A DNA stretch of 34,022 bases, from assembly GCA_018658685.1 (NCBI GenBank), contig JABHUT010000145.1:1-34022 (forward strand), in the 5' to 3' direction. Under the pieces are notes generated by a model. It was given only the letters and a program-made list of their open reading frames with translations. It was not told the DNA's origin and ran no database searches. The DNA is from Alphaproteobacteria bacterium (GTDB lineage Bacteria > Pseudomonadota > Alphaproteobacteria > MED-G09). Shown piece by piece: positions 11,539-26,377 of this stretch (its first letter is position 1; every line of letters starts with the position of its first letter). Made by a program: the position numbers and the translations under genes.

Positions 11539-11554
11539 TTTTGGAGCGTAATTT

Positions 11555-11968
11555 ATGAGTAATCAAAAACCAATAGCAGACAATCTTTTTACTTGGCCAT
11601 CCGATAAGCCAAAATTATTAGGTAGTCGCGACAGTGAAACAGGTAGATATTTCTTTCCTGCAAAAAGATCAAATACCCATGAGCAGGTTGAATTATCGAC
11701 AAAAGGTACATTATGGACTTGGACTGTGCAGAGATTTATGCCTAAAACACCATACATAGGAACAGAAAATCCTGAAGATTTTGAACCTTATCCTGTTGGA
11801 TATATTGAATTACCTGGACAAATTATGGTAGAGTCAAGATTATCTGGAGTTAAGGCAGAAGATTTAAAAATTGGAATGGAAATGGAGCTTTCAATAGAGC
11901 CATTTGTTAAAAATGAAGATGGAGAAGATCTAATGATGTTTTCCTTTAAACCATCTAAAGATTTATAG
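11555..11968 (+). CDS. DUF35-type OB-fold acyl-CoA-associated protein (thiolase partner)
   Basis: 137 aa. LLGSRDSETGRYFFPAKRS...GTLWTWTVQR...VGYIELPGQIMVESRL...IGMEMEL follows the DUF35_N + OB pattern. An RBS (GGAG) precedes it, and it lies 9 nt upstream of the thiolase-like gene. The protein has no Cys at all. Confidence 0.75.
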   Translation: MSNQKPIADNLFTWPSDKPKLLGSRDSETGRYFFPAKRSNTHEQVELSTKGTLWTWTVQRFMPKTPYIGTENPEDFEPYPVGYIELPGQIMVESRLSGVKAEDLKIGMEMELSIEPFVKNEDGEDLMMFSFKPSKDL

Positions 11969-11977
11969 GAGAAAATT

Positions 11978-13123
11978 ATGTCAGATGTAGCAATAATAGG
12001 AATTGGAATTCATCCCTTTGGAAGAACAGAAGGTATGACAGGTTTGCAACAGGGCGTTCATGCTGCGCGCGAAGCCTTATCAGATGCAGAAATGGAATGG
12101 GGTGATATTCAGTTTGCCTTTGGAGGATCTTCAGCAGCTGGAAATGCTGATGCAATGGTTAATGATTTAGGTCTTACTGGTATCCCATTTATGAATGTTT
12201 CAAATGGTTGTGCAACTGGTGGATCATCTCTTTTGTCTGCTTACACAACTATTAAATCAGGCCAATTTGATATTGGTATGGCGGTAGGTTTTGATAAACA
12301 TCCAAGAGGTGCTTTTAATGCTGATCCTGAAGCCTCAGGACTTGAGAGGTGGTATGGAGAAACTGGATTGATGTTAACAACTCAATTTTTTGGGATGAAA
12401 ATTCAACGCTATATGCATGATTATGGTATTACTTCTGATTCTCTAGCTATTGTTGCTGAAAAAGCATTTAATAATGCATCCTTAAATCCAAATGCTTGGA
12501 GACGTGATCCAGTATCAAAAGATACCATTCTAAATGCTATGATGGTTTCTGATCCATTAACAAAATATATGTTTTGTTCTCCTGGAGAAGGTGCGGTTGC
12601 TCTAATAATGTGTAGAGCTGATATTGCTCATAAGTTCACAAGTAAGCCTTTGTTTTTAAAAGGAGCAGCCTTTAGGTCAAGGCCACTAGGTTCTTTTGAG
12701 GTTTTTAGTCCTTCTTTAGAAATTGAAAGAGGCCCAAGCCCTACTGTGGGGGCATCTGAGGCAACATTTGAAATGGCAGGTATGACTCGTGAAGATATAG
12801 ATATTGCTCAACTTCAAGACACGGAATCTGGTGCAGAGATAATGCATATGGCTGAAAATGGATTTTGTAAAGATGGTGATCAAGAAAAACTTCTTCAAGA
12901 TGGAGACACAAAACTTAATGGAAAATTACCAGTAAATACAGATGGTGGATGTATAGCAAATGGTGAGCCTGTAGGAGCATCAGGTTTAAGGCAAGTTTAT
13001 GAGAATTGCGTTCAATTAAGAGGAGCGGCTGGCAAAAGGCAGGTTCAAGGAAATCCTAAAACAGCCTATACTCATGTTTATGGGGCTCCTGGAATATCAG
13101 CTTGTACAATTGTAACTACTTAA
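11978..13123 (+). CDS. Thiolase-like protein, SCP-x / lipid-transfer-protein type
   Basis: 381 aa. The nucleophile-Cys motif is NVSNGCATGGSSL, followed by AVGFDK. The C-terminal thiolase motif is NTDGGCIANGEPVGASGLRQ, with Glu where canonical thiolases have His in GHP. Confidence 0.85.
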   Translation: MSDVAIIGIGIHPFGRTEGMTGLQQGVHAAREALSDAEMEWGDIQFAFGGSSAAGNADAMVNDLGLTGIPFMNVSNGCATGGSSLLSAYTTIKSGQFDIGMAVGFDKHPRGAFNADPEASGLERWYGETGLMLTTQFFGMKIQRYMHDYGITSDSLAIVAEKAFNNASLNPNAWRRDPVSKDTILNAMMVSDPLTKYMFCSPGEGAVALIMCRADIAHKFTSKPLFLKGAAFRSRPLGSFEVFSPSLEIERGPSPTVGASEATFEMAGMTREDIDIAQLQDTESGAEIMHMAENGFCKDGDQEKLLQDGDTKLNGKLPVNTDGGCIANGEPVGASGLRQVYENCVQLRGAAGKRQVQGNPKTAYTHVYGAPGISACTIVTT

Positions 13124-13133
13124 GAGATTTATA

Positions 13134-14135
13134 ATGATTAATAAACAATTTACCTTAGCAGGGAGACCTGTTGGGCGTCCTATAGAAGATTCTGATTTTG
13201 AATACAAAGAATCTGAAATTGGAGAACCTAATGAGAATGAAGTTCTTCTCGAAAATCTAGTAATAGAGTTTCAACCTGCCCAAAAAGGTTGGATGGAGCA
13301 AATTTCTAATTATGTTGCACCTCTGGAAATTGGGGATGTTATGAGGTGTGGTGGAATTGCAAGAGTATTAGAAAGTAAATCTAAAAAATTCAAAAAAGGT
13401 GATATTGTTTCCGGTCAAACATGTTGGCAAACGCATCCAATTCTTGATGCTACTGAACTTGAGAAAGTAGATGATGAAAGTATGGCTACTAAATACTTGG
13501 GTGCTTTAGGAAGTACTGGGTTAACAGCATATTTCGGAGTTACAAAAATCAGTAAACCAAAACCAGGTGATACAGTTGTTATAACTGGTGCTGCAGGAGG
13601 TGTAGGATCCGTTGCAGGACAAATTTTCAAAATTGCTGGCTGCAAAGTTATAGGGATTGCTGGTGGTAAAGAAAAATGCGACATGTTGATTGATGAATTT
13701 GGATTTGATGGAGCTGTTGATTATAAGTCTGAAGATATAAATGAAGCTCTAAAAAAGTTGTGTCCAGAAGGGGCTAATGTTCTTTACGATAATGTGGGTG
13801 GAAGAATTCTTAATGATTGCTTAAATCACATTGCTATGAATGCACGAGTTGCTATTTGTGGAATTATATCTCGACACAAAACAGATAATTCAAATTTCGG
13901 ACCAGAAAATTACGCTAATTTGATTTTTAAGAGAGCTAAAATGGAAGGATTTATCGTTATTGATTTTATGTCAGAGAGCGGAGACGCAAGAAAGAAATTA
14001 AAAAAATGGATCTCTGAAGGAAAGATTAATTGCAAGGAAGATATGCAAGAAGGTTTCGAAAATGCTCCAAAAACTCTTAGACGATTATTTGAGAGTAAAA
14101 ATAAAGGCAAGCAACTTTTAAAGATAGCTGATTAA
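13134..14135 (+). CDS. NADP-dependent oxidoreductase, zinc-independent MDR (alkenal/enone reductase, YncB/CurA/LTB4-dehydrogenase-like)
   Basis: 333 aa with N-terminal FTLAGRPVGRPIEDSDFEY and nucleotide motif GAAGGVGSVAGQIFKIAGCKVIGIAGGKEKC. No zinc-ligand GHE motif. Confidence 0.85.
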   Translation: MINKQFTLAGRPVGRPIEDSDFEYKESEIGEPNENEVLLENLVIEFQPAQKGWMEQISNYVAPLEIGDVMRCGGIARVLESKSKKFKKGDIVSGQTCWQTHPILDATELEKVDDESMATKYLGALGSTGLTAYFGVTKISKPKPGDTVVITGAAGGVGSVAGQIFKIAGCKVIGIAGGKEKCDMLIDEFGFDGAVDYKSEDINEALKKLCPEGANVLYDNVGGRILNDCLNHIAMNARVAICGIISRHKTDNSNFGPENYANLIFKRAKMEGFIVIDFMSESGDARKKLKKWISEGKINCKEDMQEGFENAPKTLRRLFESKNKGKQLLKIAD

Positions 14136-14587
14136 AATTTCATAGACCCTGCTACTCCAGATCGTCCATTCAAATTTTCAATATTAAGAGTTTTTTCATT
14201 TTGGGCTGTATCCATAAATTCATAAACCTCTGTAATTTTTGAACTTTCAATTTTAAATATATGGCAATAGGTCTGATCCATAACCTCCCCATTTAAAGAT
14301 TTACCTCTAGCACTCATTAAGCCAGTTACTCTATCATCATCTGCGCACATAATTTTCCAATTCTCAGCAAATGCTACTGTATTTTGATCTAAACTTGCAA
14401 CTACCGCTGGGACTAGAATGCCGTAGACATTTTCTTTACCTTCCCAGTATCCAGAGAAAGGAGATTCACCAATGATATGAAATTTTACATTTTCATCCAT
14501 TAGTGAAATTACTGTTTCAAAATCTCCACTACTTATTGATTTATAATATGTTTCCATAATTTTTCTATTTTTATTGCTATTACTCAT
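14132..14587 (-). CDS. SnoaL-like / NTF2-fold protein (ketosteroid-isomerase-like)
   Basis: 151 aa. IMETYYKSISSGDFETVISLMDENVKFHIIGESPFSGYWEGKENV is the typical SnoaL_2-type opening. Its stop overlaps the stop of the convergent reductase gene (TTAA, 14132-14135). Confidence 0.6.
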   Translation of the reverse strand: MSNSNKNRKIMETYYKSISSGDFETVISLMDENVKFHIIGESPFSGYWEGKENVYGILVPAVVASLDQNTVAFAENWKIMCADDDRVTGLMSARGKSLNGEVMDQTYCHIFKIESSKITEVYEFMDTAQNEKTLNIENLNGRSGVAGSMKF

Positions 14588-14620
14588 AGAAACATCTCCT
14601 TATTTAGTTTATGTTCTCTT

Positions 14621-14649
14621 TTACTTTATATGAATAAAGTAAGTATAAT
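14621..14649 (+). promoter_or_regulatory. Candidate sigma-70 promoter with embedded 9-bp inverted repeat (possible operator) upstream of the ACAD operon
   Basis: -35 TTACTT (14621-14626), 17-nt spacer, perfect -10 TATAAT (14644-14649). The inverted repeat TTACTTTAT (14621-14629) / ATAAAGTAA (14634-14642) has a 4-nt spacer and spans the -35 and spacer. Confidence 0.3.
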
Positions 14650-14681: not shown

Positions 14682-15827
14682 ATGAATACACCTTTTAATT
14701 TTCATCTAACGCAATTTTCTAATGAAGCGGAAATTTTAAGATATGAAGTAAGAGAATTTTTATCGGATGCGCTTAAAGATATCTCAAAAGAAACCAGAGC
14801 GGAAACTTGGTATGGTGCTGACGAAGAATTCAGCAAAAAAGTAGGTAAAAAGGGGTGGATAGGATTAAACTGGCCAAAAGAATATGGCGGAGCAGGTCGT
14901 TCAGCAATGGAGCGATATGTTATTTTAGAAGAAATGTTGACTGCGGGCGCACCTGTAGGTGCTCATTGGATTTCCGATAGGCAGTCAGGTCCTCTTATTA
15001 TTCGATATGGAACTGAGAAGCACCAAAAAGAGTTGCTTCCAGGAATCTTAAAGGGTGAGTCTTATTTTTGTATAGGAATGTCAGAACCAGACTCTGGTTC
15101 AGATTTAGCGGCTCTTAGAACTAAAGCTGAAAAAAAAGATAATATTTATATTGTTAACGGAACTAAGCTTTGGACATCTGGAGCACATCGATGTCAGTAT
15201 ATGATTGCTTGTTTTAGAACATCGCAAGAAGAAGATAGACATGGAGGTCTTAGTCAATTTATTGTCGATTTATCTCTTCCTGGAATCACTATTAGACCAA
15301 TTATTGATTTAGCTGGTCGCCATCATTTTAATGAGGTTATTTTCGAAGATGCTGAGGTACCTGCCGATATGCTTATTGGAGAAGAGGGAAATGGCTGGAA
15401 TCAAGTTACAGCGGAATTAGCTTTAGAACGTTCTGGCCCTGAGAGATATTTATCCAGCTATATACTTTTACAAGAGTTGGTTAATGAGTTTTCTATTAGA
15501 AATGATGATGAAGGCGTTACAGAAATTGGAAGGCAAATGGCTCACCTTACAACCCTAAGACAAATGTCAGTATCAGTTGCAGGTATGCTTGATGAGGGTC
15601 AAAATCCTGCTCTAGAGGCTTCAGTTGTAAAAGATCTTGGAGCAGTTTTTGAGCAAGAGCTTCCAAATATAGCTCATAGATTAATGGGTCTTGAGCCTGA
15701 TGCAAACGGATCTGACTTTCAAAGATATTTAGCAATTTTAACACAAATTTCTCCTTCTTTTTCATTAAGGGGTGGAACAAGAGAAATATTAAGAGGAATT
15801 ATTGCTAGAGGATTGGGGTTAAGATAA
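14682..15827 (+). CDS. Acyl-CoA dehydrogenase, catalytic (alpha-type) subunit of a probable heteromeric pair
   Basis: The track ORF starts at TTG 14670, but ATG 14682 sits 6 nt after GGAG and is preferred. Motifs: WPKEYGG, CIGMSEPDSGSDLAAL, IVNGTKLWTS, ELALERSG (Glu at the IVD/LCAD-type base position), and C-terminal RGGTREILRG. Confidence 0.9.
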   Translation: MNTPFNFHLTQFSNEAEILRYEVREFLSDALKDISKETRAETWYGADEEFSKKVGKKGWIGLNWPKEYGGAGRSAMERYVILEEMLTAGAPVGAHWISDRQSGPLIIRYGTEKHQKELLPGILKGESYFCIGMSEPDSGSDLAALRTKAEKKDNIYIVNGTKLWTSGAHRCQYMIACFRTSQEEDRHGGLSQFIVDLSLPGITIRPIIDLAGRHHFNEVIFEDAEVPADMLIGEEGNGWNQVTAELALERSGPERYLSSYILLQELVNEFSIRNDDEGVTEIGRQMAHLTTLRQMSVSVAGMLDEGQNPALEASVVKDLGAVFEQELPNIAHRLMGLEPDANGSDFQRYLAILTQISPSFSLRGGTREILRGIIARGLGLR

Positions 15828-16868
15828 ATGTTAAATGAGACATCGCAGTTATTATCTGATTCTGCCGAGAAAATATTTTCAGATCATGTATCAAAAGAAT
15901 GTATTGTAAATTCTGAAAAAGGAGTTTGGCCAAAAGAACTTTGGAATGAAATTGTTAATAATGGTCTTAATTTAGTTTTAGTTCCTGAGGCGCTAGGTGG
16001 TGTAGGTGGTTCATGGTTTGATGCAGGTATTCTGTTTAAGGCAATAGGAAGGTATCAGGCCCCTATCCCTCTTGCAGAAAATATTATTGCTGGACATCTT
16101 CTTGGTTTAGGAGGAATTCCATTACCCGAAGAGTCTATTGTTACGATTCTTGATGGTGATCTTTCTATTTCTGATAATAAATGTTCAGGTGTTTCTAAGA
16201 GAACACCTTTTGGTTCTAGCGCAACGCATGGGGTAGCTGTTGTAGTTGGTAAGAATTCTTCTCAAGTAATATTACTATCAATACCAAAGAATTCCATAAG
16301 TGATGATAAGAATCTAGCATTAGAGAGTAGAGCTAATATTGATTTTTCTGATGCTGAGATTATAAGCTCATCTGAAATTGATATTCCATCTGATTATATT
16401 TTAAAAATTGGAGCCTTGATGAGGTCTTGTCAGATTGCTGGAGGGTTAGAGTTTTTGTTAGATCAATCTGTTAGATATGCAAACGATAGGGTGCAGTTTG
16501 GTAGACCAATTGCTAAATTTCAAGCAATTCAACAAGAACTTGCTGTTCTTGCAACTCATGTAGCAGCTTCTGGCGTAGCAGCTGATTATGCTAGCTCATC
16601 TATGGATAATGGCTGTGAGGATCTAGCAATTGCATCTGCTAAAAGCAGGGTTGATGATGCAGTATCAATTTGCGCAAGTATAGCTCATCAAGTTCATGGA
16701 GCTATAGGCTTTACTTATGAGCATGGTTTACATTTTTCAACTAGAAGACTTTGGTCTTGGAGAGCTGAGTATGGGGCGGGAAGCTACTGGGCAAAATCTC
16801 TTGGTGAAAAGGCAGTTGCCTCTGGTGCTGAAAAGTTTTGGCCATCAATCACTTCTGGAAAAATCTAA
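15828..16868 (+). CDS. Acyl-CoA dehydrogenase family protein, degenerate (beta-type) subunit
   Basis: 346 aa. The ATG immediately follows the alpha stop (TAAATG). The C-terminal ACAD helical domain is conserved (YANDRVQFGRPIAKFQAIQQELA, HQVHGAIGFTYEHGLHFSTRRLWSWRAEYG). The middle-domain SEPxxGSD signature is absent. Confidence 0.75.
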   Translation: MLNETSQLLSDSAEKIFSDHVSKECIVNSEKGVWPKELWNEIVNNGLNLVLVPEALGGVGGSWFDAGILFKAIGRYQAPIPLAENIIAGHLLGLGGIPLPEESIVTILDGDLSISDNKCSGVSKRTPFGSSATHGVAVVVGKNSSQVILLSIPKNSISDDKNLALESRANIDFSDAEIISSSEIDIPSDYILKIGALMRSCQIAGGLEFLLDQSVRYANDRVQFGRPIAKFQAIQQELAVLATHVAASGVAADYASSSMDNGCEDLAIASAKSRVDDAVSICASIAHQVHGAIGFTYEHGLHFSTRRLWSWRAEYGAGSYWAKSLGEKAVASGAEKFWPSITSGKI

Positions 16869-16870
16869 AG

Positions 16871-17326
16871 TTGACAATAAAAGTTAAAAGTTGGCGTTAT
16901 TTTGAAGATGTTTCAGTCGGTGAAAAAAGAAAATCTGATCTTAAATTAATTACTGAAGAGGAAATAATTAATTTTGCAAAACAATATGATCCACAATGGT
17001 TTCATACTGATAAGGATGAAGCAAAAAATTCAAATTTTAAAGGAATTATTGCCAGTGGAATTCATGTAGCAGCTCTTTGGAGATTATTGGATCACGAGAT
17101 TAATAGTGATATTAATTTTGTTTGTGGAATAGGCTGGGATAATGTCAGATGGAAGAATCCTCTACGCCCAAATAGTAAAATATATGTAACATCTGAGTGT
17201 ATTTCAAAAAGTAATACATCATCAAAAGATAGAGGAGTGGCAGTATTTGATCATTCAGTAAAATATGAGGATGCTACTGATATTTTAGTTTTTAAGGGAA
17301 CTTGTTTAATTTATAAGAAGCAGTAA
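16871..17326 (+). CDS. MaoC-like (R)-specific enoyl-CoA hydratase
   Basis: The track ORF begins at TTG 16838, 31 nt inside the upstream gene. In-frame TTG 16871, 2 nt after the upstream stop, gives MTIKVKSWRYFEDVSVGE..., a typical MaoC N-terminus. The start is uncertain. The hydratase motif region is FAKQYDPQWFHTDKDEAK. Confidence 0.75.
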   Translation: MTIKVKSWRYFEDVSVGEKRKSDLKLITEEEIINFAKQYDPQWFHTDKDEAKNSNFKGIIASGIHVAALWRLLDHEINSDINFVCGIGWDNVRWKNPLRPNSKIYVTSECISKSNTSSKDRGVAVFDHSVKYEDATDILVFKGTCLIYKKQ

Positions 17327-17371
17327 AAAATTGCTTTATAATATAAGATAAATTATTAATACAAATCATTA

Positions 17372-18601
17372 ATGAAGGTTAAAATGTTAGATATTGATGA
17401 AGATACAAAGAAAGTTTTAGAGGGCTTTGAAAGAGAAAAAGCAAGAACAGGTCCTCCTGAAGGATTTCCAGGTTTTCCTGTTATTCCAGGAGAGCGTTAC
17501 ACAGATTCTGAGTTTCAAAAACTAGAAATTAAACATTTATGGCATAAATCTTGGGTTTATGCATGTCACTCTGACCAACTTCCTGAGAAAGGAAGTTATT
17601 TTGTTTGGGATAAACTAAAAGTTCCAATTGTAATAGTTAATTCAGGTGATGATAAAATTAAGGCTTACTATAATACGTGTCGTCATAGAGGTGCCCCTGT
17701 CGTTAATGATAAAAGTGGAAAGGCAAGACTTCTAGTTTGCACATATCATGGGTGGAGTTATGATCTTGATGGTAATCTTATAAACTTAAGGGATCCTAGA
17801 GATTTTGTTGATTTAGATAAATCTTGTCAAAGTTTGATTGAGGTATCTTGTGATCGACTTGGTAATTGGATATTTATAAATTTAGATCCTGATGCGGAAC
17901 CTTTAAAGGATTATTTAGGTATTCTCGGCGAGCATATGGAACAGTTCCAGCCGGATAAATTAAGACATGTTCACTCTAAGTCTTATCCAGTTAATAGCAA
18001 TGTAAAGGTACTTTTAGATGCATTTCTTGAGGTTTATCATGTGCCTTCAATTCATAAAAAAACGGTAAGTCGGTTTATTGATATAGAAGGTACATATATA
18101 AATTTATGGCCCAATGGCCATTCTAGGATGGTGACTCCTCATCGGGACCCTGACTGGAAAGATCCTGGGGCAATAGGATTAAAAGAGATAGAGACTGTTT
18201 CTGAAATACCAAAGCATCAAAATGCTTCGTATAGTTTTTTTCCTAATTTGGTCACTCCGCCAGCAGCAACTGGTATTCCATTTTTAACTTTTTGGCCTAC
18301 ATCTGATGATACTTGTGAAATTGATGTCCATTGGTTTTCGCCTGATTGGGGGGATGGCGATCTTCCAGAGGTATGGGAAAAAAGGATTGAGAATTTTGAG
18401 AATATTTTGTTTGAAGATACTCAGTTTGCACCCGATATTCAGGCTAGCGTTTCAAGCCCTGGATTTAAAGGTGTATTACTAAATTATCAAGAAAGAAGAA
18501 TTTATCATTGGCATGAAGAGCTTGATAAAAAAATTGGGCATAATAAGATGGATCAAGATTATAGTATCCCAAAAGTCCTAAGCCCGTTCATAGAAAAATA
18601 A
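17372..18601 (+). CDS. Rieske [2Fe-2S] non-heme-iron oxygenase, alpha (catalytic) subunit
   Basis: 409 aa. Rieske motif CRHRG-x15-CTYHGWSY (CxH-x17-CxxH). The mononuclear-iron region is NVKVLLDAFLEVYHVPSIHKKT. An alternative start at ATG 17384 has the better RBS (GAAGG, 5-nt spacing). Confidence 0.9.
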   Translation: MKVKMLDIDEDTKKVLEGFEREKARTGPPEGFPGFPVIPGERYTDSEFQKLEIKHLWHKSWVYACHSDQLPEKGSYFVWDKLKVPIVIVNSGDDKIKAYYNTCRHRGAPVVNDKSGKARLLVCTYHGWSYDLDGNLINLRDPRDFVDLDKSCQSLIEVSCDRLGNWIFINLDPDAEPLKDYLGILGEHMEQFQPDKLRHVHSKSYPVNSNVKVLLDAFLEVYHVPSIHKKTVSRFIDIEGTYINLWPNGHSRMVTPHRDPDWKDPGAIGLKEIETVSEIPKHQNASYSFFPNLVTPPAATGIPFLTFWPTSDDTCEIDVHWFSPDWGDGDLPEVWEKRIENFENILFEDTQFAPDIQASVSSPGFKGVLLNYQERRIYHWHEELDKKIGHNKMDQDYSIPKVLSPFIEK

Positions 18602-18622
18602 TTATTATAATAAGGATTAATT

Positions 18623-19495
18623 TTGACAGATTCAAAACAAAGATTTGGTTTATCTTATGATGAGCTAGCTACAAGAGAGACTGTCTATAAAGAAAATCTT
18701 CTTGATGGTCACTCTGTTTTAATAACAGGGGCTGGAAGCGGAATGGGAAAAGCAATGGCATTTCTTTTTGCTCGCCTTGGCGCAAAAGTGACTATCTGTG
18801 GCCGTAAAGAAGAAAAATTAATCAAAGTTTATGATGAAATTTTTAATCGGTGTGGAAAAAAAATTTTTTGGGAAGTTTCAAATGTTCGTGATCCAGATAA
18901 AGTAGAAGGGATGCTAGATGGTATTTTAGAACGTGATGGAAAAATTGATACAGTTATTAATAACGCTGGAGGACAATTTCCTCAAGATGCCATAGATTTT
19001 TCCCGAAAGGGGTGGCTTGCCGTTGTCGATCTTAATTTAAATGGACCTTGGTGGGTTATGCAAGAAGCAGCAAAGCGTTGGAAAAAATCTGGAACACATG
19101 GAAATATTATAAATTTAGTGGCTAATGTAGAAAGAGGCATGCCTCAAGCGGCTCATACTTGTGCCGCTAGGGCTGGAACAATTTATTTATCTAAAACTTT
19201 GGCAACAGAATGGGCACCTTATAAAATCAGAGTTAATTGTATTGCCCCTGGCACAATTGAAACTGAAGGATTTGAAGTTTATCCAGATAAAGCATTAGAG
19301 AGATTTCATAAAGCAAACCCAATGCAAAAATTAGGTGATGTTTGGGATATAGCAGAAGCATCTGTTTACTTAGCTTCTGATTCAGGAAGTTTTGTGACAG
19401 GAGAAATTTTAACAATTGATGGCGGTATGGCTCAATGGGGCGTTGTTTGGCCAGCAGGTATGCCTGATTATTTTAAAATGGATGGAGGAGATTAA
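18623..19495 (+). CDS. SDR of the PECR/DECR subgroup (trans-2-enoyl-CoA / 2,4-dienoyl-CoA reductase-like)
   Basis: TTG start 6 nt after AAGGA. Motifs are TGAGSGMG and NNAGGQFPQDAIDFSRKGWLAVVDLNLNG. In AHTCAARAGTIYLSKTLATEWAPYKIRVNCIAPGTI, AARAG replaces the classical YxxxK. Both blocks track my recollection of human PECR (NNGGGQF...[33 protein letters not shown]...[11 protein letters not shown]). Confidence 0.75.
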   Translation: MTDSKQRFGLSYDELATRETVYKENLLDGHSVLITGAGSGMGKAMAFLFARLGAKVTICGRKEEKLIKVYDEIFNRCGKKIFWEVSNVRDPDKVEGMLDGILERDGKIDTVINNAGGQFPQDAIDFSRKGWLAVVDLNLNGPWWVMQEAAKRWKKSGTHGNIINLVANVERGMPQAAHTCAARAGTIYLSKTLATEWAPYKIRVNCIAPGTIETEGFEVYPDKALERFHKANPMQKLGDVWDIAEASVYLASDSGSFVTGEILTIDGGMAQWGVVWPAGMPDYFKMDGGD

Positions 19496-20455
19496 TTGAA
19501 AGCTATTTATTATGAGAAGTATGGAAATATTTCTGTTTTAAAGCAAGGTGAAATTGATGATCCTAAAAAAGTATTAGATAAAGAAGTATTAATAAAAGTT
19601 AATTTTTTTTCCCTAAACCCTTTAGACTATAAGCTCCGTAACGGAATGTTGAAACTAATGACATTCCGAACGTTTCCAAGGACAACAGGCTCAGATTTTA
19701 GTGGTGAGATTGTAGCTAAAGGAGAGAGTGTTAATAATTTTGAGATAGGTGAAAAAGTTTTTGGTTTTTTATCACAATTGAATGAAGGAACTTCATCACA
19801 ATTTATTAAAGTTAATCAATCTATTCTATCTAAAGCGCCTACTAATATTGATATAGGAAAAGCAGCAGCTGTTCCATTGGCTGCATTAACTTCTTATCAG
19901 GCATTAGTTCAATTAGCTAAAATCAAAAAAGGAAATAAAGTCTTGATTAATGGTGCATCCGGAGGAACAGGTATTTTTGCTATTCAAATAGCAAAAATAT
20001 TTGGAGCTAAAGTTACATCCATAACAAGTCATAGAAATATTAATTGGATGTTAGATACATTCTTAGTAGATGAAGCCATTGATTATACTAAAGAAAATTC
20101 TCTAAATAATTTAAGGAAGAATGAATATGATATAATTTATGATTGTTATGGAAACTTATCATTTAATAAAATAAAAGACTTTTTAAAATCTGATGGATCA
20201 TTCATTACAACTGACCCTTTTCGATTAGAAAGTATAGCTGGAAGATTTTTTTCAATATTTTCTAATAGAAAATTTTTATCCGTTGTTGTTAAGTCAAATG
20301 GAATTGATTTAAGTATTGTAAGGGATTGGATAGAAGAAGAAAAAATAAAAGTTTTCATTGATAAAATTTTTAATTTTATAGACACTAGTAAGGCTTATGA
20401 ATATTTAGAAACTCAAAGAGTAAAAGGAAAAATTATTGTTCAAATAAACGAATAA
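19496..20455 (+). CDS. Zinc-independent MDR oxidoreductase (NADPH:quinone reductase / enoyl reductase-like)
   Basis: TTG start directly after the SDR stop, preceded by GGAGGAG. MKAIYYEKYG..., GSDFSGEIVAKG and NGASGGTGIFAIQIAKIFGAKV are present. No GHE zinc motif. Confidence 0.8.
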   Translation: MKAIYYEKYGNISVLKQGEIDDPKKVLDKEVLIKVNFFSLNPLDYKLRNGMLKLMTFRTFPRTTGSDFSGEIVAKGESVNNFEIGEKVFGFLSQLNEGTSSQFIKVNQSILSKAPTNIDIGKAAAVPLAALTSYQALVQLAKIKKGNKVLINGASGGTGIFAIQIAKIFGAKVTSITSHRNINWMLDTFLVDEAIDYTKENSLNNLRKNEYDIIYDCYGNLSFNKIKDFLKSDGSFITTDPFRLESIAGRFFSIFSNRKFLSVVVKSNGIDLSIVRDWIEEEKIKVFIDKIFNFIDTSKAYEYLETQRVKGKIIVQINE

Positions 20456-20472
20456 TTAAAAGGGAGAGGGAA

Positions 20473-21447
20473 GTGCAATTAAGTAAGGATAAATTATTAG
20501 ACGCATATACTAGAATGAAAAAGATTAGAGTCTTTGAAGAAACTATGCGTGATGAGTTTGCTAAGGGAACTGTTCCAGCATTTATACATCTTTATATAGG
20601 CCAGGAAGCAATAGCGACAGGTATATGTGTTGAGCTAAACGATACTGATACAATTTCTAGTACTCACAGAGGTCACGGACATTGTATCGCCAAGAAGTCA
20701 AACCTCGAAAAAATGACAATGGAAATTTTTTGTCGAGCTGATGGTTTATGTGAGGGTAAGGGCGGTTCTATGCATATTGCTGATCTCTCAGTTGGGATGC
20801 TTGGAGCAAATGCAATAGTTGGTGCTAATGCCCCTATTGCTGTTGGAGCAGCATTAAAACAAAGGGTTTTAGGTGAAAATTTAGTTTCCGCAGCATTTAT
20901 TGGTGACGGTGCTTCAAATCAAGGTGCTGTATTTGAATCAATGAATCTTGCTAGTGTATTAAAACTTCCTGTTTTATTTGTTTTTGAGAATAACGGTTAT
21001 GGTGAATTTACGGGAGTGGATTATCATTGTGGAGGAGGAGATATTGCAGGAAGAGCAAAAGGGTTTGGTATGCCATCTTATAAAGTAGATGGATCTGATT
21101 TTTTTGCTGTTCAAGAAGTTGCTGCCGAAGCTGCTGAGAGGGCAAGAAAAGGAGAAGGACCTAGTGCAATAGAATGTGTAGCAAAAAGATGGTATGGACA
21201 TTTTGAAGGTGATCCTCAGCACTATCGTACAAAAGAGGAACTTGAAACCATAAGAAGAGATTTTGATCCATTAAAAATTTTTCGTAAAAAAGTAGAAGAG
21301 GCGGGTCTTGTTGACAGTAAAGATTTAAATATGATTGATGAAGATCTTTCAAGCGAAGTTACAGCAGCAGTTGAAAAGGCAAAGAATAGCCCCTTACCTA
21401 ATGTTGAAGAGCTAACGACTAATGTATACGAAAAAGGGAGCTACTAA
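20473..21447 (+). CDS. Thiamine-diphosphate-dependent 2-oxoacid/acetoin dehydrogenase E1 component, alpha subunit
   Basis: GTG start after GGGAGAGGGA. 324 aa with TPP motif GDGASNQGAVFESMNLASVLKLPVLFVFENNGY (GDG-x26-NN) and HRGHGH upstream. Confidence 0.9.
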   Translation: MQLSKDKLLDAYTRMKKIRVFEETMRDEFAKGTVPAFIHLYIGQEAIATGICVELNDTDTISSTHRGHGHCIAKKSNLEKMTMEIFCRADGLCEGKGGSMHIADLSVGMLGANAIVGANAPIAVGAALKQRVLGENLVSAAFIGDGASNQGAVFESMNLASVLKLPVLFVFENNGYGEFTGVDYHCGGGDIAGRAKGFGMPSYKVDGSDFFAVQEVAAEAAERARKGEGPSAIECVAKRWYGHFEGDPQHYRTKEELETIRRDFDPLKIFRKKVEEAGLVDSKDLNMIDEDLSSEVTAAVEKAKNSPLPNVEELTTNVYEKGSY

Positions 21448-22460
21448 TGAGCATTAAAACTTATAGAGAGTCTATTATTGAGGCAATGATCCTCGAGATG
21501 AAACGTGATGAGAAAGTGTTTGTGATTGGTGAAGACATTTCAGGTGGAAGAGGTTGTGGTGATTTTGAGGGCGAAGCTGCTGGTGGCCCAATGGGTTTAA
21601 CTCAAGGTTTATGGGATGAATTTGGAGCAAAAAGAGTCATTGACACACCTATTAGTGAAACAGCAATTATGGGAGCGGCTGCAGGAGCAGCTCTTTCTGG
21701 TCTTAGGCCAATAGCAGAATTAATGTTTTCAGATTTTTTTGGTGTTTGTTTTGACCAAATTTATAATCAAGCAGCAAAGTTTCGTTTTATGTATGGTGAA
21801 CAAGGCGCAACCCCTCTCGTAATTAGAACGATGATAGGCGCAGGAATTGGTTGTGGTCCACAACACTCTCAATCACCTTATTCAATTTTTGCAAATATAC
21901 CTGGTTTAAAAGTAGTCACGCCTTCAAATCCTTATGATGCGAAAGGGCTTTTAATTTCTGCAATTCGAGACAATGATCCGGTCATGTTTTGTGAACATAA
22001 ATCCCTTCTTGGTATGGAAGGAGAGGTCCCTGATGATTCTTACGAGGTTCCTCTTGGAAAAGGGAAAATTATAAAAGAAGGTAATGATATTACCATTGTT
22101 GCTATTGGTCAGATGGTTGGAATTACTCAAGGATGTCTAACAAAATTAGAGGAAAAAGGTATTTCTGCAGAAATTATCGACCCTAGATCTCTATCGCCTT
22201 TTGATGAGGATATGGTTTATGATAGTGTTGAAAAAACTGGGAGACTTTTAGTGATTGATGAATCAAATCCAGTTTGTTCATTTGGATCTTGGATAACTAG
22301 TATGGTTAGTGATGAAGTATTTTCTTCTCTTAAAGCTCCTACAAGAGTTTTAACACCACCACATTGTCCTGTTCCCGCCGCACCTAACCTAGAGGCTGCT
22401 TATTTACCCGACATGGAAAGGATTGTTGAGGCAACAGATTATCTTACAAATTACAGCTAG
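21447..22460 (+). CDS. 2-oxoacid/acetoin dehydrogenase E1 component, beta subunit
   Basis: 337 aa. The ATG overlaps the alpha stop by 1 nt (TAATG). The pyrimidine-binding domain is VIDTPISETAIMGAAAGAALSGLRPIAELMFSDF, followed by a transketolase-C-like tail. Confidence 0.9.
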   Translation: MSIKTYRESIIEAMILEMKRDEKVFVIGEDISGGRGCGDFEGEAAGGPMGLTQGLWDEFGAKRVIDTPISETAIMGAAAGAALSGLRPIAELMFSDFFGVCFDQIYNQAAKFRFMYGEQGATPLVIRTMIGAGIGCGPQHSQSPYSIFANIPGLKVVTPSNPYDAKGLLISAIRDNDPVMFCEHKSLLGMEGEVPDDSYEVPLGKGKIIKEGNDITIVAIGQMVGITQGCLTKLEEKGISAEIIDPRSLSPFDEDMVYDSVEKTGRLLVIDESNPVCSFGSWITSMVSDEVFSSLKAPTRVLTPPHCPVPAAPNLEAAYLPDMERIVEATDYLTNYS

Positions 22461-24292
22461 TCTAATAACTCGAAATTTAATAAAACGTTACCAGCCATAT
22501 TACCACCATATTGGTAGCCAGAATTCATAAATAGATTACTGCCCGCTATAACCGGTCCAAGACCTTCAATGGTTCCGCCATATGCTTTAATATCCGTAAA
22601 TTCTGAAAAATCAACATTCGTGTTAAATTCCCATAACAGCTTGCCTGAAGTATTATCCAAAATATACATCCATCCATCCATGCCAGCGGCAATTATTATA
22701 TCATTTGTAGAACTAAGAGCTGCTGAAATTCCTCTATCACAAGCACCACCAAGCCCTTCACATCTATCTTGAGGTTCAAATTTCCAGTTTAGTGATCCGG
22801 TTTTCGCATCCAGAGAGTAGACTCCGGGTGTAGCTGGACCAGGAAATTTATTAATATAGTTTTTATCAGAAATTCCCGCAAAAATACTCTTTCCATCCGT
22901 CGTCATACCCCAATGAACTCCACCAGCAAACCCACCTCTTCCTATTTTTTTTGACCATAAAAGCTTTCCATTTTGATCTGGATCTAAAGCATAAACATGT
23001 CCTGATTTCCTGCCTCCAAAGAGTATACTCTTGTCATCATCCAAGTCTATTAAGATTGTTGAGGCTCCAAAATCCCAATCTGGTCCATTTTCTTCAGGAC
23101 AACCTGATCCAGATGAAATAAAGCAACCCATATTCCATGCATCACCAGTCTGTGCTTGAAAAGACCAAACAATCCCACCTTTAGTTTTATCAATTGCTAA
23201 AATTGAATCACTCGTATCTGCTGCTGGTGATGTATATGATTCACCAGTCCCTACATAAATAAGATTCCTCTTATTATCCACTGTTGGAGAATTCCATACA
23301 GGAACCCCAGAAGGTGCTAAAATTTTCTTACCAGATTCATTATATTTTCCAGTATGTTTCGGAGGTACTGGTATAGAATAAGTTCTCCATAACTCATCTC
23401 CATTTTCAGCACTTAAAGCCATTACACCACCCCTAAAAGAACAACACTCATAATCTGGGTTTGCTCCATCAGCCCACTCTCGAGATGAAAGTGGAACATA
23501 AATGACGTTATCGTATACTCGAACTGATCCAGTTAGTATTACTCTTGGATGATATCTAAGAGATTTAGTCCAGAGGTTTTCTCCAGTAATTGCATCATGC
23601 TTATAAACATTTCCTTCATAATCGCCAGAGAAAACAAAATACTTTCCGTTTATTTTTTCTAATACTGGTGCAGATCTAATTTCGCCTTGAATTTTAGTTC
23701 TCCAGCGAACACAGCCATCATCTCTATCTAAAGCATAAAGATGTGAATTTTGATCGCCGATAAAGACTACATTACCAGAAACAGAAGGTTGAGACCTTGA
23801 TCTTGTGGCGCCCGGAAATGCAAAGACCCATTTTAATTTTAGTTTATCTAAATTTTGACTATCTATATTAGAGTTAGTATTTCTAGTATTTTCTCGATCA
23901 TAACCCCATTGAGTATATGAATTATTATTGAATTTTATAGTTGAATTTTTTTCACAATATTTTGGTTCAGGTAAATTTGTTGTTATAGGGCTTCCACTAA
24001 TATATTCTGCAAGCTTAACCTTTTCTTTATCTGTTAAGTGAGACGATTGAGATGACATTACACCATTTAAAGTTTCTAATATATAATCTGCTGACATGGC
24101 AGAGAATGTAGTCGCATGAGGTGCTCTTGGCGTACCCCCGCTATGACAACCCAAACAAGATTCATTAAAAATTTTTCCTGAAATCTTATCTGATCCGGTA
24201 AATAAACCCCCCTCATCTTCAACAGCTGTACTTGCATGCGTTGGGGATGAGTAGGTTGATATAAATAACAGTAAGAATAAAATTTTTTTCAT
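22457..24292 (-). CDS. Quinohemoprotein: N-terminal cytochrome c domain fused to PQQ-type beta-propeller dehydrogenase (polyvinyl-alcohol-dehydrogenase-like architecture)
   Basis: 611 aa with a signal peptide (MKKILFLLLFISTYSSPTHAS). The heme-c motif CLGCH is at residues 46-50 (nt 24143-24157), with a candidate distal Met in NGVMSS. The propeller opening is WGYDRENTRNTN...LKLKWVF. A vicinal Cys-Cys (YECCSF, nt 23441-23446) resembles PQQ alcohol dehydrogenases. Confidence 0.75.
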   Translation of the reverse strand: MKKILFLLLFISTYSSPTHASTAVEDEGGLFTGSDKISGKIFNESCLGCHSGGTPRAPHATTFSAMSADYILETLNGVMSSQSSHLTDKEKVKLAEYISGSPITTNLPEPKYCEKNSTIKFNNNSYTQWGYDRENTRNTNSNIDSQNLDKLKLKWVFAFPGATRSRSQPSVSGNVVFIGDQNSHLYALDRDDGCVRWRTKIQGEIRSAPVLEKINGKYFVFSGDYEGNVYKHDAITGENLWTKSLRYHPRVILTGSVRVYDNVIYVPLSSREWADGANPDYECCSFRGGVMALSAENGDELWRTYSIPVPPKHTGKYNESGKKILAPSGVPVWNSPTVDNKRNLIYVGTGESYTSPAADTSDSILAIDKTKGGIVWSFQAQTGDAWNMGCFISSGSGCPEENGPDWDFGASTILIDLDDDKSILFGGRKSGHVYALDPDQNGKLLWSKKIGRGGFAGGVHWGMTTDGKSIFAGISDKNYINKFPGPATPGVYSLDAKTGSLNWKFEPQDRCEGLGGACDRGISAALSSTNDIIIAAGMDGWMYILDNTSGKLLWEFNTNVDFSEFTDIKAYGGTIEGLGPVIAGSNLFMNSGYQYGGNMAGNVLLNFELLD

Positions 24293-24315: not shown

Positions 24316-24966
24316 TTATTTCTTAATTCCAGCATATAAGATATCTACGTGATCAGAGGAATACTTACCAATATTTATAGTTCGATTAATCATAATTGTT
24401 CTTAAGCTTAAATGCTCTAGCCCTCCATAGAATTGACTTTCAAAGACAGGGAAATTTAGACTCTCTTTAACTTCACCAATCTCTATTGAATTCTCAATAA
24501 TATTTTTGAGTATTTTTGAATATCTTTTTTTAACTATATGGGCTTCAGAATCTTTATATTTTTCCCAACGCAATTCTTTAATAAAGAGTTTATGAATTTT
24601 TGGAGTTGCTTTCATCCCTTCAAGATATCTGATAGCTAAAAATAGTAGGCGAGAGTATAGGTCTGTTACTTCCTGGATATCTTTTTCAGTTTTTTCTATA
24701 AAAGGCTCAAACCATTCATTAACTATTTGATTAAGCAAATCTTGTTTATTATCAAAATATTTATAAATAGTTGCTTCAGATATTCCAGCTGCTTTAGAAA
24801 TTTTTACCATTGATAAATCATTGATTCCACCTTCTTCGAGAATTCTTTTTGACGCTTCAATTATTTCTTTTGGGCGAGAGCTTTTGCGACGTTTCCAAGC
24901 ATTTTGATGGCTTGATATAGCTTTAATATTAGATTCTGATAATTGATTTTTTACCGATCTTCCCAT
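24316..24966 (-). CDS. TetR/AcrR-family transcriptional regulator
   Basis: 216 aa. The N-terminal HTH is LSMVKISKAAGISEATIYKYFDNKQDLL, followed by a helical ligand-binding domain. A strong RBS (AAGGAAGG) precedes the ATG. It lies 23 nt upstream of the quinohemoprotein gene on the same strand. Confidence 0.85.
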   Translation of the reverse strand: MGRSVKNQLSESNIKAISSHQNAWKRRKSSRPKEIIEASKRILEEGGINDLSMVKISKAAGISEATIYKYFDNKQDLLNQIVNEWFEPFIEKTEKDIQEVTDLYSRLLFLAIRYLEGMKATPKIHKLFIKELRWEKYKDSEAHIVKKRYSKILKNIIENSIEIGEVKESLNFPVFESQFYGGLEHLSLRTIMINRTINIGKYSSDHVDILYAGIKK

Positions 24967-25062: not shown

Positions 25063-25560
25063 GTGGTTAAGGAAAATAAAAAAATATGGGAAGAATTAAT
25101 CTCAAAACCTAAAGGGCTTCCAAATGATATTTTTTCTGGACTTAGTTTTCCTGGCGGAACTTTTTTTATCGACACCAATACAAACTTATTAATTTATAAA
25201 TCAACAGGCATGATTGTTAATAAAAAAAATCTAAATAACTTTATACATGCTCACCCTATTTTTTTATTCACTTCTACATTAAGGGGTTCAGGTGCGTCCA
25301 TACAGGATATTTTTGATTTATTGGATTATGATGTAAATAATGGTCCGATGCTTGGCCAGTGTAATATGTCTTTCAAATCACCATTACAATTAGAACGAGA
25401 ATATAAGATTGATGGAAAAATTGTTTCACTAAAAGAAAAGATAAGCAAAAAACTCGGAAGGATTAAGATTTTAGATTTTACTTTATCAATGTTTGATAAT
25501 CATAATTCGAAAGTAGCTAGTGTTGATTATGTATGGATACTTCCGGAGAAGGAGGCATAA
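25063..25560 (+). CDS. Hot-dog fold protein resembling the non-catalytic N-terminal half of MaoC dehydratases (MaoC_dehydrat_N-like)
   Basis: 165 aa with a GTG start after AAAGG. AHPIFLFTSTLRG and MLGQCNMSFKSPLQLEREYKIDGKIVSLKEK...GRIKILDFTLSMFDNHNSKVASVDYVWIL match the hot-dog helix/sheet pattern. No D-x-N-P-x-H catalytic motif is present. Confidence 0.45.
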   Translation: MVKENKKIWEELISKPKGLPNDIFSGLSFPGGTFFIDTNTNLLIYKSTGMIVNKKNLNNFIHAHPIFLFTSTLRGSGASIQDIFDLLDYDVNNGPMLGQCNMSFKSPLQLEREYKIDGKIVSLKEKISKKLGRIKILDFTLSMFDNHNSKVASVDYVWILPEKEA

Positions 25561-25967
25561 TGTATAGTAAAGGATCTAATTTAAAGGATTGGGCGTTTTT
25601 AGTACCTCAGGAAAGTATGAATACTTGGGCTGTTATTCTAGACGATCCAAACCCTATTCATCTAGATGCTAATGCTGCCAAACAAGTCGGTTTGGGTGAC
25701 AAAACTATAAATCAAGGCCCGGCAAATATTGCTTATATATTGAACATGATTGAAGAAAATTTTCCTAACTCTCGAATTCTAAAGATGAATAATAAGATGA
25801 CTGATTCAGTTCTTGAGGGTGATTTAGTAACTGTTTCTGGACAGATTTCAGAAATTAAAGCTGAAGGTGATCAATTTATTGCTTCATGTTCAATAAAGTT
25901 AACTGTAGGAGAAGATAAAATTGCTGTATTATCTGAAATTGATGTATTGTTTGAGAGATCTCAATAA
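25560..25967 (+). CDS. MaoC-like (R)-specific enoyl-CoA hydratase, catalytic hot-dog subunit
   Basis: The track ORF starts at 25533. ATG 25560 overlaps the upstream stop by 1 nt (TAATG) and follows GGAGAAGGAGG, so it is preferred. The hydratase-2 motif is present: WAVILDDPNPIHLDANAAK (D-x-N-P-I-H-x5-A). Confidence 0.75.
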   Translation: MYSKGSNLKDWAFLVPQESMNTWAVILDDPNPIHLDANAAKQVGLGDKTINQGPANIAYILNMIEENFPNSRILKMNNKMTDSVLEGDLVTVSGQISEIKAEGDQFIASCSIKLTVGEDKIAVLSEIDVLFERSQ

Positions 25968-26377
25968 ACCTTTCTTAGCTTCATCCACCAGTCCTGAACT
26001 TCCGCTGCATGACTTTCGCCATATTCTTTTGCTAAATCAGATGCGTCCTCAGGTACTTTTTGCATTTCTGTAACCCCGACAGGTGCTGCGTCTTCAATAG
26101 GGTCCAACCATTCGAGATTAATATCCTCAATAACTCCATCATATTGTGCACCAGCTGCTTCATGATATTCACTGATTTGATGTTTAAGTAAAAAATCTAA
26201 ATATGTGGGGTAGACCAAAAGAGTATAATAGGAACTTCTTTCTCTTCCTCTATAGTATTCATAGCGAATAATGCAATCCTCATTAGCGTGTGATTGTTTA
26301 TATAGTTCTTTTGACAGTTCTTCGAATTTTTGCTCTTGACCTTCTACTATTTTAATATGGGCTAATAAAGACGACAT
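25961..26377 (-). CDS. ABM (antibiotic-biosynthesis-monooxygenase / Dabb ferredoxin-like) domain protein with ~45-aa C-terminal extension, paralog 1
   Basis: 138 aa. LLAHIKIVEGQEQKFEEL...EDCIIRYEYY...YYTLLVYPTYLDFLLKHQISEYH follows the ABM pattern (beta1-KpG-x-F ... E-x-gC-x-Y ... E-x-W-x-s-x-a-x-H-x-x-s-x-H). The family call is made by eye only. Confidence 0.45.
   Translation of the reverse strand: MSSLLAHIKIVEGQEQKFEELSKELYKQSHANEDCIIRYEYYRGRERSSYYTLLVYPTYLDFLLKHQISEYHEAAGAQYDGVIEDINLEWLDPIEDAAPVGVTEMQKVPEDASDLAKEYGESHAAEVQDWWMKLRKVY

Follow-up and report, generated by a model that had tools for sequence, protein, structure and literature searches.

A gene block joining a predicted heteromeric acyl-CoA dehydrogenase, a Rieske oxygenase and a putative acetoin-dehydrogenase-type E1 in PS1-clade marine Alphaproteobacteria

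What chemistry would bring together, in a single run of genes, a pair of acyl-CoA dehydrogenases, a hydratase, a Rieske oxygenase, two reductases and a thiamine pyrophosphate (TPP)-dependent E1? The question is raised by positions 14682-22460 of a 34,022-nucleotide contig (JABHUT010000145.1, assembly GCA_018658685.1; the whole contig is called the window here), which belongs to the PS1 clade or "Rhodobiaceae" group of marine Alphaproteobacteria. A sequence-only reading had described these genes as an operon matching no textbook arrangement. No description of such an arrangement was found in the literature, and a search on the gene combination and on PS1 catabolism found no paper on the cluster. 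The answer put forward here is tentative, plausible without quite being the probable one: the block would be part of an island of at least 45 kb for the β-oxidation-like catabolism of bulky, methyl-branched or alicyclic, probably unsaturated, terpenoid-type acyl-CoA.

The open reading frame (ORF) list and the junction sequences confirm eight + strand genes in this region. Pfam and NCBIfam confirm the domain labels of all eight proteins, in the families and order first proposed (ACAD, acyl-CoA dehydrogenase; SDR and MDR, short-chain and medium-chain dehydrogenase/reductase):

14682-15827, + strand: ACAD-α
15828-16868, + strand: ACAD-β
16871-17326, + strand: MaoC
17384-18601, + strand: Rieske-α (a start at 17372 is also possible)
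18623-19495, + strand: SDR
19496-20455, + strand: MDR
20473-21447, + strand: E1α
21447-22460, + strand: E1β

The spacers are those originally given, 0, 2, 45, 21, 0, 17 and -1 nt, the third becoming 57 nt when the second ATG is taken as the Rieske start. For ACAD-α, the ATG at 14682 and its GGAG ribosome-binding site are kept in every related locus, the mechanical ORF start being TTG 14670. Gene callers prefer TTG 16871 for MaoC, with an alternative TTG at 16838, and the Rieske homologues begin at the second ATG, 17384, the first possible start being 17372. The stop-codon overlap described for the 3' end is also confirmed: a CTAG is common to the E1β stop (TAG, 22458-22460) and to the stop of a convergent 611-amino-acid gene (22457-22459, - strand). 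The window is AT-rich, at 31-39% GC. Terminator-like matches across the block occur at chance level and are located inside genes. None of the eight genes is disrupted, and purifying selection acts on all of them, with ratios of nonsynonymous to synonymous substitution (dN/dS) of 0.03 (ACAD-α) to 0.14 (MDR, the highest) against their orthologues in the related locus L007, values that are approximate given that dS is close to saturation. The eight genes are a real block under selection and probably one transcriptional unit; their common direction, the short or overlapping junctions and the absence of an internal terminator argue for a single operon.

The sequence-only reading took the first two genes for a heteromeric ACAD, and when compared with solved α2β2 ACADs the two indeed match different subunits. 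ACAD-α combines N and M domains with an IVD/LCAD-type Glu, located in the motif ALERSG (15420-15437) and aligned with the ER of IpdE1; its closest solved relatives are IpdE1 (6wy9, 163 bits) and ChsE4 (4x28_A). ACAD-β has no Pfam middle-domain match and carries Met instead of the helix-G Glu (GALMRS, 16410-16427), and a reading of its motifs finds no YEG-type Glu in the sequence. Its top NCBIfam match is IpdE2, and its closest solved relatives are IpdE2 (6wy8_A) and ChsE5 (4x28_D). The similarity of the pair to the IpdE and ChsE proteins is moderate, at 163 and 58 bits. In heteromeric ACADs the catalytic Glu lies in α alone (PMC10925408), a rule that Glu in ACAD-α and Met in ACAD-β fit. The pair is predicted to form an α2β2 enzyme with ACAD-α as the catalytic subunit and ACAD-β as its non-catalytic partner. 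The adjoining MaoC protein has the hot-dog fold (PF01575, 53 bits) and a D-x4-H motif, DPQWFH (residues 40-45, 16988-17005). Its solved relatives are PDB 3exz, Rv0130 and PaaZ, it shares 40-42% identity with MaoC from the Niveispirillum and Paracoccus clusters with a second Rieske type described below, and it is a predicted (R)-specific enoyl-CoA hydratase.

The Rieske protein is α-only, without a β subunit. Its [2Fe-2S] motif CXH-X17-CXXH lies at 17678-17749 (C99/H101/C119/H122) and its D/H/H mononuclear iron site at 18017-18055 (D212/H219/H224), and the ligands of both cluster and iron are invariant in 14 homologues. CntA, Stc2 and 3n0q are its neighbours in the PDB by sequence and fold, and the top fold matches, made with an AlphaFold2 model of moderate quality (pLDDT 72), are CntA, Stc2 and TPADO. 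The protein appears closest to the α3 monooxygenases CntA and Stc2. An identity as KshA or another steroid 9α-hydroxylase was considered and rejected, there being no KshA chain among PDB sequence matches at or below 1e-5 and the nearest folds being those of CntA and Stc2. Across Alpha- and Gammaproteobacteria the family shows 55-61% identity, and an identical protein is found on JGI metagenome contigs.

The SDR was labelled PECR-like at the outset. In NCBIfam it scores highest against NF005811 (2,4-dienoyl-CoA reductase), with 203 bits where the cut-off is 318, and its PDB neighbours are 3imf, the citronellol-catabolism dehydrogenase 6lln, PECR (1yxm) and DECR, which points to an enzyme of DECR/PECR/AtuB-like type. 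The MDR is quinone-oxidoreductase or enoyl-reductase-like by Pfam and NCBIfam. It has 27% GC vs 36-39% in its neighbours, and this low GC together with the highest dN/dS of the block marks it as a recent accessory insertion.

The last two genes encode an E1. E1α matches Pfam E1_dh and carries the TPP motif GDG...NN at 20902-20994 and YGHFEGD at 21193-21213, while E1β has the PISE Glu at 21648-21659, the QHSQ His at 21861-21872 and no lipoyl domain. The residues taken to be required for activating TPP and acylating the lipoyl group are present. E1αβ shares 55-58% identity with E1 proteins from clusters in Acinetobacter, Klebsiella and Rhodococcus (E1α alone 55-57% to those of Acinetobacter and Klebsiella) that also encode E2 and LpdA and that carry, in Acinetobacter and Rhodococcus, acetoin reductase and 2,3-butanediol dehydrogenase. 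The operon E1 is nearer these aco-cluster proteins than its own paralogue (52-53%), which suggests an E1 of acetoin-dehydrogenase type. A housekeeping pyruvate dehydrogenase (PDH) E1 was rejected: the scores fall below NCBIfam equivalog cut-offs (322.9 vs 393.85 for E1α against the PDH model; 317.7 vs 321 and 306 vs 454 for E1β), and the aco-cluster E1 is closer. Homologue lists for E1α are saturated by 88-99% identical proteins with generic names and tell nothing about function; hundreds of near-identical variants occur in ocean metagenomes, some on more than 500 contigs.

The likeness to acetoin dehydrogenase (AcoABCL) lies in this identity and in the TPP and lipoyl-acylation residues. The setting is different. 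The operon ends with E1β and holds neither E2 nor E3; an E3 was not seen at all, and the window ORF list shows no acetoin reductase or butanediol dehydrogenase beside the E1. Instead, the E1 sits between an enoyl-reductase-type gene and a pyrroloquinoline quinone (PQQ)/cytochrome-c dehydrogenase in an acyl-CoA catabolic block. The sole nearby E2, which has a lipoyl, an E3-binding and a catalytic domain, is part of a paralogous E1α-E1β-E2 operon about 11-13 kb downstream on scaffold L085, which continues past the 3' end of the window. The E1 is therefore without an E2 locally and not an orphan in the genome; the earlier description of an orphan TPP E1 stands for the operon, which has no E2, and fails for the genome. 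As for the suggestion that E1 cleaves or decarboxylates an oxidised intermediate, the acetoin-dehydrogenase type of the E1 supports the cleavage of an α-hydroxyketone, and the order of the reactions is something we infer.

The recurrence of the block in relatives was followed by searching all window proteins against 80 fetched loci (tblastn). The relatives are L005 (Rhodobiaceae MED801) at 98% identity, MED-G09 at 90%, and PS1/OCS116 single-cell genomes at 82-84%. The same gene order does exist elsewhere: all eight genes are found in order in L005 and L007 only, and seven of the eight, with the MDR absent, in five more PS1/OCS116 genomes (L008-L012). In these five a spacer of about 125 nt stands in place of the MDR between SDR and E1α; it is AT-rich and conserved, and at its 3' end it shows homology to the closing part of the MDR region. 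The spacer contains TTGATTAAAAC-T7-CAGTCAAAAT and may be an internal promoter or operator in these genomes. Two further loci (L013 and L014) have four of the eight genes, ACADα-ACADβ-MaoC-Rieske followed by the convergent PQQ gene, the SDR and E1 being absent at 77% Rieske identity. The position of E1αβ between the SDR and the PQQ dehydrogenase is held in seven PS1 genomes. Outside the PS1 clade only the Rieske and SDR genes of the eight stay together. As a unit, then, the eight-gene operon is real, tightly packed and recurrent, yet it is an evolutionary mosaic with a recent MDR and not a fixed set.

Beyond the clade, genes within 10 kb of the Rieske gene were counted in 38 non-PS1 loci with full flanks. 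CoA-transferase III and a fusion of an HMG-CoA-synthase-like (HMGS-like) domain with DUF35 are each present in 36 of the 38, a DECR-like SDR in 35, an SCP2-thiolase in 34, a CMD protein and an ACAD in 32 each, a TonB receptor and a CoA ligase in 30 each, and a PQQ/cytochrome-c dehydrogenase in 22. The E1 is found in none. This widespread and highly conserved cluster occurs in Woeseiaceae, Steroidobacteraceae, Caulobacterales, Eilatimonas and Niveispirillum (loci L015-L084 and L087; for example, L070 3724-21066), often with a second Rieske α, and the arrangement is annotated on a Niveispirillum plasmid. Its Rieske (55-61%) and SDR (50-64%) are orthologous to those of PS1, and the PQQ dehydrogenase, MaoC and CoA-ligase families are the same. 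The PS1 version differs in having no CoA-transferase or HMGS::DUF35/thiolase pair by the Rieske gene and in having the heteromeric ACAD, MaoC and E1αβ. An annotated variant with crotonase, lpdA and ThuA lies on pPAN2 of Paracoccus pantotrophus, where both Rieske types and lpdA are present, yet no E1 occurs in the stretches viewed. No literature was found on either the Niveispirillum-type or the Paracoccus-type cluster.

A Rieske gene is accompanied by an E1 in two other settings. In L060, from a different Rhodobiaceae metagenome-assembled genome, E1α-E1β-PQQ form one operon convergent with Rieske-SDR, with no E2, and the E1 is about 55% identical to both PS1 E1 paralogues. In Niveispirillum, SDR-Rieske2-E1α-E1β-E2 lie in one operon near MaoC, ACAD, a Rieske ferredoxin, VOC and ThuA; its proteins have their orthologues in the downstream module of PS1, with identities of 49, 62, 63 and 44%. 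PS1 thus has two parallel Rieske+E1 modules, with an E2 in one only. These two independent observations, L060 and the module common to Niveispirillum and PS1, indicate that the association of Rieske and E1 is meaningful. The pairing of a Rieske oxygenase with an AcoAB-type E1 recurs in other Alphaproteobacteria and is undescribed in the literature found, the families themselves all being familiar.

The functional unit is much larger than 14682-22460, and includes the CoA ligase/DUF35/thiolase genes, the PQQ dehydrogenase, the P450 and the second Rieske system. The neighbours in the window that bear most directly on the operon are the following:

9961-11538, + strand: long-chain-type acyl-CoA ligase (Pfam/NCBIfam)
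11555-11968, + strand: DUF35/OB protein carrying a ChsH2_C OB domain
11978-13123, + strand: SCP2/BbsB-type thiolase (Pfam/NCBIfam)
13134-14135, + strand: alkenal/enone-reductase MDR (Pfam/NCBIfam)
22457-24292, - strand: dehydrogenase of the periplasm, convergent with the operon; it has a signal peptide, CLGCH (24143-24157) in an N-terminal cytochrome c, and a β-propeller of PQQ type
24316-24966, - strand: TetR regulator with a YsiA/FadR-like C-terminal domain (Pfam), 23 nt upstream of the PQQ gene

The best solved relative of the upstream thiolase is BbsB (7pxp), at 154 bits vs 88 for Ltp2, and PhlC is also among its solved relatives. The upstream module (9961-14135) is contiguous with the operon in L008-L012, where the intervening gene of the window is missing. 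That gene, SnoaL-like and antisense (14132-14587, - strand), overlaps the stop of the upstream MDR by 4 nt. The PQQ/cytochrome-c dehydrogenase probably belongs to the same system as the operon, being near the Rieske family in all PS1 loci as well as in the distant loci counted above. The TetR gene keeps its position in PS1 relatives although its sequence is fast-evolving, and it is a candidate regulator of the island; nothing was found that ties it to the palindrome described below.

Further out, an RND inner-membrane component, a P450 and an aldehyde dehydrogenase lie about 4 kb upstream of the window start. The P450 is strongly P450terp/CYP108-like (356 bits, with CYP125 and CYP124 next), and in L013 it stands directly upstream of the ACADα operon. 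The island as a whole has three C=C reductases, four NTF2/SnoaL-like, two ABM (antibiotic-biosynthesis-monooxygenase-like) and VOC proteins, two further MaoC-type genes and the FadR-like TetR. The reductases, the NTF2/SnoaL-like, ABM and VOC proteins and the TetR count, with the P450, in favour of a terpenoid-type substrate. PQQ alcohol dehydrogenases have a role in terpene alcohol oxidation. The CYP108-like P450 and the resemblance of the SDR to the citronellol-catabolism dehydrogenase 6lln recall the P450terp and Atu systems. Unlike those systems, this region shows no geranyl-CoA carboxylase, isohexenylglutaconyl-CoA hydratase or terpredoxin and reductase genes, and the P450terp and Atu pathways themselves contain neither a Rieske oxygenase nor a TPP E1. 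No biotin carboxylase or carboxyltransferase occurs among the window or flank genes, and the AtuB-like SDR is the sole member of the Atu set there. The Ambrox paper offers general alicyclic-terpenoid logic only.

Taken together, a route of the following kind may be proposed. Outside the operon, the periplasmic cytochrome-c/PQQ dehydrogenase, the CYP108-like P450 and the aldehyde dehydrogenase would oxidise the substrate to an acid, which the CoA ligase would activate. The IpdE/ChsE-type α2β2 ACAD and the MaoC (R)-hydratase would then handle a substrate whose bulk defeats ordinary enzymes, taking it through a β-oxidation-like turn, with thiolysis by the BbsAB-type DUF35/thiolase pair just upstream. 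The DECR/PECR/AtuB-like SDR would remove obstructing C=C bonds, as might the extra MDR in this lineage. The α-only Rieske enzyme would hydroxylate a carbon that blocks β-oxidation, giving an α-hydroxy-carbonyl (acyloin) directly or after oxidation. E1αβ could then cleave the acyloin C-C bond with TPP and deliver the acyl portion to the lipoyl-E2 encoded in the paralogous operon and so to CoA. The enzyme families, gene anatomy, synteny and selection behind this route are established by the analysis, and its substrate, the order of its steps and the sharing of E2 are inferred.

The last two steps would amount to a new strategy of C-C cleavage, in which Rieske hydroxylation beside a carbonyl of a terpenoid-type (methyl-branched or alicyclic) acyl-CoA or ketone is coupled to acyloin or 2-hydroxyacyl-CoA cleavage by an E2-less E1αβ with a borrowed lipoyl-E2. 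This specific proposal is doubtful, far more so than the wider reading of the island. A functional analogy for it exists in eukaryotes. In the peroxisomal α-oxidation of phytanic acid, the PhyH hydroxylase and a TPP-dependent 2-hydroxyacyl-CoA lyase get past a 3-methyl branch, and PECR acts on phytenoyl-CoA. The logic is alike, with hydroxylation beside the carbonyl, TPP cleavage and a PECR-type enoyl reductase, while the enzymes differ: an iron/2-oxoglutarate enzyme vs a Rieske oxygenase, and an acetolactate-synthase-type TPP lyase vs E1αβ. If the proposal is true, it would be a Rieske/TPP counterpart of eukaryotic α-oxidation, and PS1 would use it to get past the methyl branches or quaternary carbons of dissolved organic matter derived from phytol, carotenoids or other terpenoids.

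Several findings weigh against reading the block as a dedicated part of such a route. None of the eight proteins meets a substrate-specific (equivalog) NCBIfam model, so the substrate class rests on family resemblance and neighbours. Geranyl-CoA carboxylase and the other Atu hallmarks are not seen in the window or the examined flanks. The Rieske enzyme has no ferredoxin or reductase partner in the operon or window; a Rieske-type ferredoxin adjoins the second Rieske α about 20 kb past the operon on L085. The link from the operon to the paralogous E2 runs across an N-gap in L085 (about window position 33719); L013, a contig without gaps, shows ACS-ACS-E2-E1β in that order too, and its E1β is an 81% orthologue of the paralogue. 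The absence of E1 from all of the distant Rieske loci means that Rieske function does not generally require it. Composition varies even among close relatives, L008-L012 being without the MDR and L013 and L014 without the SDR and E1, so the eight genes cannot be one indispensable linear pathway. In the seven-gene relatives the spacer ahead of E1α could hold a promoter of its own.

These last points lead to the alternative that survives best, unlikely as it is judged to be: a mosaic of independent modules that accreted in a streamlined genome, with parts that serve different pathways. ACADαβ-MaoC-Rieske would be one unit, E1αβ a second acetoin or 2-oxoacid E1 using the nearby E2, and the MDR a passenger. 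The stepwise variation in gene content among relatives, the MDR as a compositional outlier and the fastest-evolving gene, the conserved spacer before E1α, the closeness of the E1 to that of clusters including bona fide aco-type ones, and its absence from the distant Rieske loci all fit this account. It is harder to reconcile with the constant position of E1αβ between SDR and PQQ dehydrogenase across seven PS1 genomes, with L060, where E1αβ shares an operon with the PQQ dehydrogenase opposite Rieske-SDR, and with the parallel Rieske2-E1-E2 operon of Niveispirillum and PS1. The lack of acetoin or butanediol genes beside the operon E1 and the SDR-MDR-E1α-E1β junctions of 0, 17 and -1 nt in the window also speak for a connection between the parts.

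Degradation of a steroid (sterol or bile-acid) side chain or of the C/D rings, as in the actinobacterial Chs/Ipd systems or Sphingobium Chol11, is improbable. The ChsE4-ChsE5 (FadE26-27) and IpdE1-IpdE2 systems, which include the best solved relatives of the ACAD pair, likewise have adjacent ACAD paralogues with Glu in α only, MaoC next to them, and DUF35 and SCP2-type thiolase proteins nearby, and the ChsH2_C OB domain of the DUF35 protein, the TetR and the NTF2-fold proteins add to the resemblance. In Sphingobium sp. Chol11, a side-chain cluster combines the CoA ligase SclA, the heteromeric ACAD Nov2c221/222 and a Rieske protein, Nov2c228, of unknown role, and has been proposed to substitute for canonical aldolytic or thiolytic cleavage (bioRxiv 10.1101/2021.05.19.444901). 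By its description this is the same combination of CoA ligase, heteromeric ACAD and Rieske in one cluster; however, the Chol11 Rieske is a KshA homologue, and Chol11 has amidases and no TPP E1. The Rieske enzyme of PS1 has no detectable similarity to the KshA structure and groups with CntA and Stc2. The similarity to IpdE/ChsE is only of the moderate order given above, the thiolase is nearer BbsB than Ltp2, and the host is a streamlined marine bacterium. In the window and its flanks of about 20 kb there is no KstD, HsaA-D or other hallmark of steroid ring cleavage, nor any hallmark of aromatic ring cleavage.

More improbable still is the CoA-linked oxygenation of an aromatic or alicyclic acid followed by side-chain removal with a thiolase-like/DUF35 de-acylation and the SDR as a dihydrodiol dehydrogenase (of the ibuprofen ipf or PhlABC type): the CoA-transferase, HMGS-like::DUF35, SCP2-thiolase and SDR genes that flank the non-PS1 Rieske (36, 36, 34 and 35 of 38 loci), PhlC among the solved relatives of the thiolase, and the VOC/glyoxalase-fold proteins nearby favour it, but the oxygenase is α-only and nearest to aliphatic monooxygenases and demethylases, the SDR is DECR/PECR-like and not BphB-like, and the HMGS::DUF35/thiolase pair is missing next to the Rieske gene in PS1 operons.

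The reading as an island for bulky terpenoid-type acyl-CoA would matter for the ecology of the ocean. PS1-clade bacteria are common in surface seawater, and the enzyme logic of the island, with heteromeric ACADs, MaoC, DUF35/thiolases and P450terp-like and Rieske oxygenases, is that used elsewhere for steroids and terpenoids. Branched and alicyclic lipids are believed to contribute to the fraction of marine dissolved organic matter that is carboxyl-rich and alicyclic. Should the substrate derive from terpenoids, the locus would provide a concrete genetic handle on the use of such lipids by oligotrophic bacterioplankton. Cultured carriers of the widespread Rieske-SDR cluster are available in Paracoccus pantotrophus DSM 2944, Niveispirillum cyanobacteriorum TH16, Croceicoccus marinus and Eilatimonas milleporae.

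The control of the operon is a separate question. The sequence-only reading had placed a TATAAT promoter with an embedded palindrome ahead of ACAD-α, and both elements exist:

14620-14649, + strand: σ70-like promoter candidate, TTTACT-18 nt-TATAAT
14621-14642: perfect 9-4-9 palindrome, TTACTTTAT-ATGA-ATAAAGTAA, a possible operator inside the promoter candidate

A function for them is less well founded. Promoter-like matches in this AT-rich DNA are no commoner than in shuffles (42 vs 58±8), a perfect inverted repeat of at least 9 bp appears in about 2.5-3% of shuffles of the spacer that holds the palindrome (p ~0.03), and the palindrome and -10 element are partly conserved in L005 and L007 only and unrecognisable in other relatives. 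With that record and no second copy in the window, a role of the palindrome as a conserved TetR operator is not supported.

Other features of the window and its flanks complete the picture. Divergent from the TetR gene and kept in relatives, a gene for a 165-amino-acid protein without a Pfam match (25063-25560, + strand) overlaps a MaoC hot-dog gene (25533-25967, + strand) by 28 nt, and the pair may encode a heteromeric (ChsH1/ChsH2-like) hydratase. Next to it are tandem paralogous genes of the ABM fold (25961-26377 and 26430-26843, - strand); L008-L013 have a single copy, which indicates a recent tandem duplication in the window. A second PQQ dehydrogenase (27501-29465) matches the membrane-bound glucose/quinate/shikimate family at 727 bits from profile position 152 only, and so has no N-terminal membrane domain and a signal-peptide-like start instead. 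A third AMP-binding acyl-CoA ligase (about 32652-34022, + strand) is incomplete at the window end.

Past the 3' end, positions 1-8894 of L085 (a 120.7-kb scaffold, in reverse orientation) hold a second catabolic module, with an SDR, the Rieske-type ferredoxin and the second Rieske α (463 amino acids) on one strand and two VOC proteins, a Zn-dependent alcohol dehydrogenase, ThuA and the paralogous E1α-E1β-E2 on the other. Upstream of the window start, on L093 (11183-21176), the CYP108/P450terp-like P450, a rhodanese and the aldehyde dehydrogenase adjoin the RND pump. They are followed by an ACAD/3-hydroxyisobutyryl-CoA hydrolase-like/3-hydroxyisobutyrate dehydrogenase-like set of the valine or methacrylyl-CoA type and an acetyl/propionyl-CoA synthetase. 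Neither Rfam nor tRNA scans found anything in the window. The longest perfect inverted repeat in any intergenic region of the window, 12 bp at 7191-7267, lies between an ammonium-transporter gene and a FAD-oxidase gene that converge on it, and probably acts as a terminator in both directions.

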